Assembly: GCF_050920415.1 (NCBI RefSeq)
Contig: NZ_CP169309.1
Direction: 5' to 3' (one strand)
Source: Escherichia coli
GTDB taxonomy: Bacteria > Pseudomonadota > Gammaproteobacteria > Enterobacterales > Enterobacteriaceae
Length of the DNA stretch: 64,000 nucleotides
Part shown: piece after piece, positions 42,979 to 45,348 of the stretch
How positions within the stretch are numbered: the stretch's first letter is position 1
Layout: every line of letters begins with the position of its first letter
Program-made: the position numbers and the translations under genes
Notes under the pieces: model-generated
Seen by the model: only the letters and a program-made list of their open reading frames with translations
Told to the model about the DNA's origin: nothing
Database searches by the model: none

Positions 42979-45285
42979 TCAATACAACTCATCAAGTTTT
43001 CTCATCGCTTGTTCCCGTATTGCGCGCGTCTTACCGTTAAGCGCCAGCTGGCGAACTAAATCCAGTTCAGGGTTAACAAGCTCTAACGCCAGCAAAGGAT
43101 CACGTTTCAGCCTCGCCTTTAATACATCAACTGGAAAACGGGGATTATTCATCGCCACAATCCACCACTCGGGATCAATTTCTGCCGCCAGTGCCGCAGG
43201 GGGGGTGTGGCGGTTGCTAAGTGCGCCGAACTTGAAAAATGTGAGATTGCTTTTCGCCAGTGTACTCCACCATATACGATCCGGTTGTTTTGCCAGTACA
43301 TCCAGTTGTGCTAACGCATCGGGGTCGAGTGCATAATAAACACGTAACGCTTCGTTAACCTGCGCACGGGAGCTGTTTTCCTGCCTCAGAAAAAACTTCG
43401 CCCAAATATCATTGCGTGGCGTGTTTTTCTGTAATTCTTTGAGAACAACAGCGGGTAAATTATCCCAACTAATTAATGCACTCTCTAAAAAGTCCCAGTC
43501 GTCCGAACGTATCAGAGAGGTGGCATTTAATAGCATCTGGTCATCAACTTCACCGTAGCTGATAAGCTCAGACAAAATCATATCAGCGCTGGTTTCATAT
43601 GCATCTGAATCTGCTTTGGGATTATTTTTCCGATGCGATAAAGCACGTTGCCAAATTTTTTGTTTCATCGACGTGCTCAGATACTGATTTTTCGCCAGAT
43701 TACTCCACCCCTCAGGATCGTTGAAACGTGTCAATAATCGTTGTAGAGCAGCGTCAGAGTGAATTACCTGCATATCCCGACAGCAAAAGTAGGCAGGGGA
43801 TTTTTTCTCCATCCTTTTAACAAAATTAAACTGTAAGTTATCTGGCAATGCTAAAAATAACACACGTATTAGATCATCGTCATTCTCGAATTTTTGGTAT
43901 AAATATACTGCAACTTTGTCACTCTCTTGTGGCGTCATCCGCAACAATTGACCATGGTGTTTCATCTCTGCCAGCTTTGACGCTAAGCTTGTGACAACAT
44001 CGTTTGATGAATCGTTCGCCAACTGCATTGCCTGATTGTAGGTGAGTTGTCCTCCAGCACCGACCTGACGAATAGAGGGATCATCACTGCGGATATAGCC
44101 ATCAATAATGGATTCGGGCAATAACCACGCATCTTTATAAAGCTCCTGAATGATCATATCCCAATCTCTTTTCGCCAGAGTCATGACGATATCCAGAGGG
44201 AGATTTTCACGTAGCGCAAGATTCAACGGACCGACACCATCAGGTAGATGACTCATTCGCGTCATTATTTCGACAGAGAGCGGTTCACGGTCGAGCAACC
44301 CCAGAACAACAGGCTGGTAACCCAATTGCTGATCGGTCAACTCCAGAATCTCATTGTCAGGCATATATCTCGCCATACTTGCAATCGTTTGTCCATCATT
44401 GCTATTAATAAGTTGTTTGCGTAGGTTAGCTGAAATTCCTTTAATCCTTGGGAGAGTTCGCATTATGGCAAGATCAAATGTCGCAATATCTCGTCCTTCA
44501 AATGCAGCAACGTTGCCTTCATCCAGCATTTGCAATTCCTGCACTAACTCAGGAGAAGGCTTAGGGCGAAACAGCGCTTCTTTTTTCATCAGATTACAGA
44601 TATTCCCTGCCATGCGAATATTGCTTCGCTTAAAAATTTCTTTCAGAGCATCTTCATCATTTATTAGACCCCAATAATATGCATCAGGATTTATTATCAT
44701 CAGCGCTTTTTTGACATTTTCAGTGTCATTTTTATCACTCGCACGGACCATGAATTCACTATTTGTCGAAGACGCAACAACAGGTGCAATTATGTCATTG
44801 ATAAATATCCCACGCGCATTAATACTCCCCTTAATCGTAGACGGATTATCGTAATATGAATCGATAAATACCAGTCCACTTGCATTTATCGAACCGGTAA
44901 TTAACAGTGGTGAATCTGTAACTATATTCGTTGCCGTCACGTTACCGAGAATAACCCATGGATTAGAAAGAGAGAAAGTGGAAATATTACCTTTGACTGT
45001 CAAATTGCCAAGAACAATCAATTTTTGATTACTCTCTATATTACCTTCTACCACTAAATCGCCACGATGCACTTTCCAGTCCGATGCAGATAAACCGAAG
45101 GGGACAAGATTCACGCTACTGTTGATAGCTTGTTCAACTTGCTGTTTATCTTCAGCGGTAGCCGCAGATAAAAATGGATTAATATCAACTGCATTTGCAA
45201 CACATCGAAGTTCCGCCTGTACTGGAAGACTCAGGATAAACAGGGGAAGTAAACGTATCCAGCCGCAAATCCTGGCCTTAAACAT
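42979..45285 (-). CDS. ydbD: Large uncharacterised secreted protein YdbD (about 768 aa)
   Basis: ORF 42979..45291 (-); signal peptide ...LLPLFILSLPVQAEL; start at first or second Met. Confidence 0.85.
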   Translation of the reverse strand: MFKARICGWIRLLPLFILSLPVQAELRCVANAVDINPFLSAATAEDKQQVEQAINSSVNLVPFGLSASDWKVHRGDLVVEGNIESNQKLIVLGNLTVKGNISTFSLSNPWVILGNVTATNIVTDSPLLITGSINASGLVFIDSYYDNPSTIKGSINARGIFINDIIAPVVASSTNSEFMVRASDKNDTENVKKALMIINPDAYYWGLINDEDALKEIFKRSNIRMAGNICNLMKKEALFRPKPSPELVQELQMLDEGNVAAFEGRDIATFDLAIMRTLPRIKGISANLRKQLINSNDGQTIASMARYMPDNEILELTDQQLGYQPVVLGLLDREPLSVEIMTRMSHLPDGVGPLNLALRENLPLDIVMTLAKRDWDMIIQELYKDAWLLPESIIDGYIRSDDPSIRQVGAGGQLTYNQAMQLANDSSNDVVTSLASKLAEMKHHGQLLRMTPQESDKVAVYLYQKFENDDDLIRVLFLALPDNLQFNFVKRMEKKSPAYFCCRDMQVIHSDAALQRLLTRFNDPEGWSNLAKNQYLSTSMKQKIWQRALSHRKNNPKADSDAYETSADMILSELISYGEVDDQMLLNATSLIRSDDWDFLESALISWDNLPAVVLKELQKNTPRNDIWAKFFLRQENSSRAQVNEALRVYYALDPDALAQLDVLAKQPDRIWWSTLAKSNLTFFKFGALSNRHTPPAALAAEIDPEWWIVAMNNPRFPVDVLKARLKRDPLLALELVNPELDLVRQLALNGKTRAIREQAMRKLDELY

Positions 45286-45348
45286 ATGCACTCCATGCCA
45301 TTAAAAAAGAAACAAAAGGGAAATGCATCTTTCCCTTTTGTATATTCG

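Follow-up and report, generated by a model that had tools for sequence, protein, structure and literature searches.

YdbD of Escherichia coli, a predicted exported protein that pairs a beta-helix with an LRV/HEAT-type solenoid

Introduction

What does the large protein encoded by ydbD do in Escherichia coli, and is it the protein that its database names suggest? Among the E. coli K-12 genes that lack characterisation, ydbD is one of the larger, and the RefSeq name of its product, bactofilin, implies a cytoskeletal filament former. In the literature searched, no experimental characterisation of YdbD was found, in agreement with an earlier inspection of the DNA letters (the sequence-only reading), which had given its function as unknown. 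Here, ydbD was analyzed in a stretch of 64,000 nucleotides of E. coli (contig NZ_CP169309.1, assembly GCF_050920415.1), referred to as the window.

Results

The ydbD gene and its start codon

The segment 42979-45291 of the window corresponds to E. coli ydbD, a previously annotated gene that is read from the minus strand. A 770-aa open reading frame had been reported there; the frame is present in the list of open reading frames (minus strand, 770 codons, from the GTG at 45291 to the stop at 42979-42981), but its start had to be replaced. Translation almost certainly begins at the ATG at 45285, and the resulting product of 768 aa matches RefSeq WP_000471505.1. The strings VILGNVTATNIVTDSPLLITGSINASGLVFIDSYY and GSINARGIFINDII, quoted by the sequence-only reading, which left the strand unstated, both occur in the translation of the frame. 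The gene and its upstream region contain the following features:

42979..45285, minus strand: ydbD coding sequence, 768 codons plus the stop at 42979-42981 (list of open reading frames, translation, RefSeq annotation of the identical sequence)
45291..45294, minus strand: Shine-Dalgarno sequence GGAG, 5 nt before the ATG at 45285 and overlapping the GTG at 45291 (read from the sequence)
45303..45341, minus strand: terminator-like hairpin and T-tract of pdxI, 12-bp stem at 45341-45312 (terminator scan and sequence; putative terminator)

The GC content of ydbD is 43%, versus 48.7% for the window. No tandem repeats were found in the DNA of the gene, and an Rfam search with it gave no match; the "repeats" of YdbD exist at the level of protein structure only. 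The mature protein has a mass of about 84 kDa, a pI of about 5.1 and only four cysteines.

Upstream of the gene, the space between the pdxI hairpin with its T-tract and the ydbD ribosome-binding site is too short for a ydbD promoter. Since there is no room for a promoter of its own, ydbD would probably rely on read-through of the pdxI terminator. The reported expression of ydbD is below 1 ppm (Price et al., 10.1101/038851). Induction by sigma-E, 3.9-fold, has been described (PMC2731931); in the 1.1 kb upstream of ydbD, no sigma-E promoter was matched at 5/7 plus 4/5 positions.

Genomic neighbourhood

On the minus strand, the gene order is ydbH-ynbE-ydbL, the autotransporter gene ydbA, pdxI (ydbC), ydbD, ynbABCD and azoR. 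The neighbours named by the sequence-only reading (the ynb operon and ydbC/ydbA) agree with the RefSeq annotation. That reading had also placed ydbD within a block of envelope-associated genes; an implication of this position for function was not supported. In Escherichia albertii-type loci the order is pdxI-ydbD-azoR without ynbABCD, and one of these loci lacks the autotransporter as well; some E. coli strains delete ydbD alone; and distant relatives of YdbD lie in unrelated gene neighbourhoods, with positions that vary even within Enterobacteriaceae. No recurrent partner or conserved neighbour gene was found in ten contexts (eight full-length relatives and two other beta-helix architectures).

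Selection and loss in Escherichia

Among 5426 complete E. coli genomes, 4456 gave a megablast match to ydbD and 3833 kept at least 80% of its length, the remaining 29% falling below that value. Besides clean deletions, the losses observed include a pseudogene with a frameshift and a copy interrupted by IS1, and ydbD is thus dispensable and repeatedly lost in E. coli. The full 768-codon frame is nevertheless retained in most genomes and in E. albertii. When compared with E. albertii-type alleles, ydbD showed a dN/dS of 0.16-0.26 across all domains, versus 0.04-0.08 for pdxI and 0.06 for azoR; the gene is under purifying selection, with a constraint weaker than that of its neighbours. Given its presence across E. 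coli genomes and these dN/dS values, ydbD is a real gene and not a chance open reading frame.

Signal peptide and predicted structure

The AlphaFold model of full-length YdbD (pLDDT 86.9, pTM 0.73; 91.7 pLDDT for a model of the N-domain) shows a predicted architecture of a signal peptide (aa 1-24), a cap (25-67), a beta-helix (68-185) and a helical solenoid (186-768), to which the following features correspond:

45214..45285, minus strand: predicted Sec signal peptide, aa 1-24 (MFKARICGWIRLLPLFILSLPVQA, cut after VQA; hydropathy, pLDDT, relatives)
45085..45213, minus strand: N-terminal cap, aa 25-67, helix 44-53 and short bridging strands (AlphaFold DSSP, pLDDT 77-92; putative capping role)
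44731..45084, minus strand: right-handed three-sided beta-helix, aa 68-185, about 5-6 rungs, the hydrophobic/Asn/Gly repeat region of the sequence-only reading
44527..44730, minus strand: linker/tail, aa 186-253, with the family motif G-x-P-x-F-R at its end (family consensus)
42982..44526, minus strand: LRV/HEAT-type alpha-solenoid, aa 254-768 (hhalign, Pfam matches of relatives, Foldseek)
42982..43224, minus strand: Pfam DUF2773 match, aa 688-768, covering the final helical hairpins of the solenoid

The signal peptide suspected by the sequence-only reading has the expected n, h and c regions: positive residues K3, R5 and R11 are followed by the hydrophobic core LLPLFILSL and by a PVQA|E site with small residues at -3 and -1, ELR being the start of the mature chain. 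Furthermore, the hydropathy maximum of YdbD is at the N-terminus, and the AlphaFold pLDDT is below 50 for aa 1-24. With the same simple heuristic, a similar N-terminus was called in 28 of 40 full-length relatives, and two of the 12 that seemingly have none (P0039 and P0041) regain one when the start codon is shifted upstream. Judged from these sequence features, YdbD is probably Sec-exported, soluble and periplasmic.

The beta-helix-like N-terminal region, for which structure prediction had been proposed as a check, is a right-handed beta-helix in the model. Its flanks are ordered (pLDDT 77-92 for aa 30-67, solenoid from residue 188), isolated beta-bridges being predicted at residues 32, 40-41 and 239; the contacts, and hence the putative capping of the ends, were judged from secondary-structure output. 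The tail motif takes the form ...KEALFRPKP in YdbD, with F239 and R240. In the family, this linker/tail with G-x-P-x-F belongs to the beta-helix module in every architecture and also ends stand-alone beta-helix proteins.

The long, apparently alpha-helical region of the sequence-only reading corresponds to about 43 helices over aa 188-768, and relatives match the LRV, LRV_2 and HEAT models. YdbD itself matched neither LRV nor HEAT models, DUF2773 (PF10971; E 2.2e-44, 149.9 bits against a cut-off of 25) being alone above its cut-off, which makes YdbD a member of this family; the helical repeats run uninterrupted through the DUF2773 stretch. For the solenoid, Foldseek returned only generic PDB matches, namely HEAT/ARM solenoids of karyopherin and PP2A-A type (TM 0.2-0.3). 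Sequence searches of the PDB with YdbD and with an N-domain profile gave nothing significant.

A rare family of paired modules

A word-indexed homologue search gave Escherichia sequences only, and the family was found by an exhaustive search of representatives. About 30 full-length relatives with 20-31% identity were obtained in Proteobacteria and metagenomes, most of them with signal peptides. Since a narrow-motif scan of genome contigs amounted to six loci, the taxonomic distribution is a sketch. Among 40 relatives, Pfam matches were obtained to LRV_2 (16), LRV (12) and HEAT (11), and the recurring solenoid motif is LAxDxxxxVRxxLAxxxxLP.

In Streptomyces and Kitasatospora, the two halves of YdbD are adjacent genes, both without signal peptides. 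At five actinobacterial loci, an LRV protein is followed directly by a 207-aa beta-helix protein, each aligning to one half of YdbD. The separate LRV protein (505-539 aa) is collinear with the YdbD solenoid and was aligned by hhalign over columns 247-772 with a probability of 99.7% and an E of 1e-25; the Streptomyces partner reaches 49.6 bits for LRV (cut-off 21.6) and 39 bits for HEAT (cut-off 23.5). Because neighbouring actinobacterial genes encode both halves, the two modules of YdbD would be expected to work together. A visual likeness to SUKH/SMI1 proteins, noted for the N-terminus of the protein P0145 and for the gene that lies downstream of the Streptomyces pair, found no support in Pfam, NCBIfam or PDB sequence searches.

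Elsewhere, the beta-helix module is fused to LRV/HEAT, ankyrin, DUF285 or DUF4116 repeats, and it also occurs duplicated. As copies that lack a signal peptide occur in Actinobacteria and in other architectures, the function of the family would not be intrinsically periplasmic.

The Escherichia protein lacks the conserved polar motifs of the family (YDDY, SWG, NDF-FE and DK) and keeps 51% of the consensus positions, the lowest value among the 40 members. As judged by alignment, no other member of this rare family with its patchy distribution has diverged further, and, given the lost polar motifs, the function of the Escherichia protein may be changed or reduced.

Comparison with known systems

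The RefSeq name bactofilin is probably wrong. Like bactofilins (BacA, 2n3d; Thermus bactofilin, 6ria), YdbD has a triangular, right-handed beta-helix core some 110 residues long. Its match to the Pfam Bactofilin model (PF04519) is weak: full-length YdbD scored 15.7 bits and its N-domain alone 20 bits, whereas the gathering cut-off is 27.9 bits. None of the 40 full-length relatives reaches an E of 0.01 on this model; a weak match (E 1) was seen in just three of 42 N-domains, versus six each for MinC_C and pAdhesive_15; and the family profile retrieved no bactofilin from the PDB sequences. Bactofilins are cytoplasmic and usually membrane-bound via an N-terminal targeting sequence, and about 3% of them have N-terminal transmembrane anchors (PMC12448750), whereas the N-terminus of YdbD resembles a cleavable signal peptide whose positive-inside n-region predicts a periplasmic location. 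In addition, instead of the disordered tails that define bactofilins, ordered structure flanks both ends of the YdbD beta-helix: a cap, a tail and a 580-aa solenoid. Because of the predicted export and the putatively capped ends, filament formation is disfavoured, and it is very unlikely that YdbD is a true bactofilin.

The fold of the beta-helix fits secreted beta-helices equally well. With these (tapirins, autotransporter passengers such as Pet, FHA/HxuA TPS domains and DUF4097-type putative adhesins) the identity is 8-15%, with no sequence similarity, and YdbD differs in that its beta-helix has about 5-6 rungs, that a translocator or partner is absent and that the solenoid makes up three quarters of the protein. 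The C-terminal domain of MinC (PF03775) is a small right-handed beta-helix too, with weak matches in NCBIfam and in the N-domains counted above; MinC, however, inhibits division from within the cytoplasm and has an N-terminal domain of another kind, and all scores of the YdbD family are far under the cut-offs. The relatives that reach the Pfam cut-offs for LRV and HEAT, together with the HEAT/ARM-like fold, suggest a kinship of the solenoid with LRV/HEAT proteins (PF01816, PF25591, PF02985; DUF2336), from which YdbD differs in being too divergent to match the models and in having its solenoid joined to a beta-helix and predicted to be exported.

Discussion

We propose, at roughly even confidence, that YdbD is a monomeric, non-enzymatic binding or scaffold protein of the periplasm with two modules, made at a very low level. 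In such a protein, both open ends of the beta-helix would be covered, by the N-terminal cap and by the conserved fold-back tail; the solenoid would present an extended concave face on which a protein, a peptide or an envelope polymer could bind, and the beta-helix would be a rigid partner module touching the solenoid. A pure scaffold model leaves unexplained the methylglyoxal annotation, the induction by sigma-E, the importance of ydbD for fitness in a transposon screen (Price et al., 10.1101/038851) and the sweeps of ydbD under iron(III) (PMC12466345).

Source names include "protein involved in detoxification of methylglyoxal", and such older names reportedly trace to a 2007 mutant screen. 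A direct role of YdbD in methylglyoxal detoxification or resistance would fit the aldo-keto reductase encoded upstream by pdxI. No enzyme signature was found in YdbD with Pfam and NCBIfam, which gave DUF2773 and sub-threshold beta-solenoid matches only; catalytic domains, cofactor sites and thiol-rich motifs are absent, and a periplasmic protein would be odd for a cytoplasmic electrophile. The expression level and the truncated or missing gene in 29% of genomes also argue against this role, which we regard as highly improbable even though ydbD has been listed as induced by methylglyoxal (PMC2731931) and as possibly involved in its detoxification (PMC13313352). Likewise very doubtful is a role of YdbD as an adhesin, secreted or on the cell surface, or as a virulence-type beta-helix, functionally tied to the neighbouring autotransporter. 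Its signal peptide, the intact 1845-aa autotransporter one gene (pdxI) away and the best structural matches of the beta-helix (tapirin, the Pet passenger, FHA/HxuA TPS domains and putative adhesins) are consistent with such a role. However, autotransporter or TPS features were not found in YdbD, whose C-terminus is helical, with no Pfam match above cut-off and no conserved partner gene; there is no beta-barrel, TPS partner or lipobox, the few rungs are a minor part of a protein that is mostly solenoid, ydbD occurs without the autotransporter and the autotransporter without ydbD, and relatives have no secretion-system neighbours.

The varied repeats fused to the beta-helix module, its duplication, the patchy distribution, the low GC content, the differing positions within Enterobacteriaceae, the frequent loss and the faster evolution than that of neighbours would all suit a conflict or immunity-type binder, in which a constant beta-helix with interchangeable repeats captures foreign proteins, for example toxins or phage components. 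We consider this unlikely: PADLOC, run on YdbD, a Tahibacter homologue and each Streptomyces half, gave no match at E ≤0.1; genes for toxins, secretion or defence were absent from the surroundings in all examined contexts; the SUKH-like neighbours were unsupported; and 768 aa is far above the typical size of an immunity protein. It is also quite improbable that ydbD serves no present function in Escherichia and survives as a remnant in the course of being lost. The divergence and lost motifs of the Escherichia protein, its scant expression with apparently no promoter of its own, and the deletions, frameshifts and IS insertions in many strains point in that direction; the dN/dS across all domains, which indicates continuing purifying selection, the intact frame in most genomes and in E. 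albertii, and the reported importance for fitness point away from it.

The practical importance of ydbD is limited, as its expression is minimal and about three in ten E. coli genomes lack it. Thousands of genome annotations carry the probable misnomer "bactofilin". The likely export, the failed bactofilin sequence test and the family of beta-helix-plus-LRV proteins make work on the periplasm and on partners sensible, rather than cytoskeleton imaging or methylglyoxal enzymology. For the family as a whole, we raise as a tentative and rather doubtful possibility that the N-terminal part of YdbD, a beta-helix with a fold-back G-x-P-x-F tail, represents an unmodelled mobile domain family paired with interchangeable LRV/HEAT, ankyrin, DUF285 and DUF4116 scaffolds, exported in Proteobacteria and encoded by a two-gene operon in actinomycetes. 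If true, this would be a new modular binding system, for instance in surveillance, immunity or as a scaffold, in which the beta-helix is constant and the repeats pick the target.

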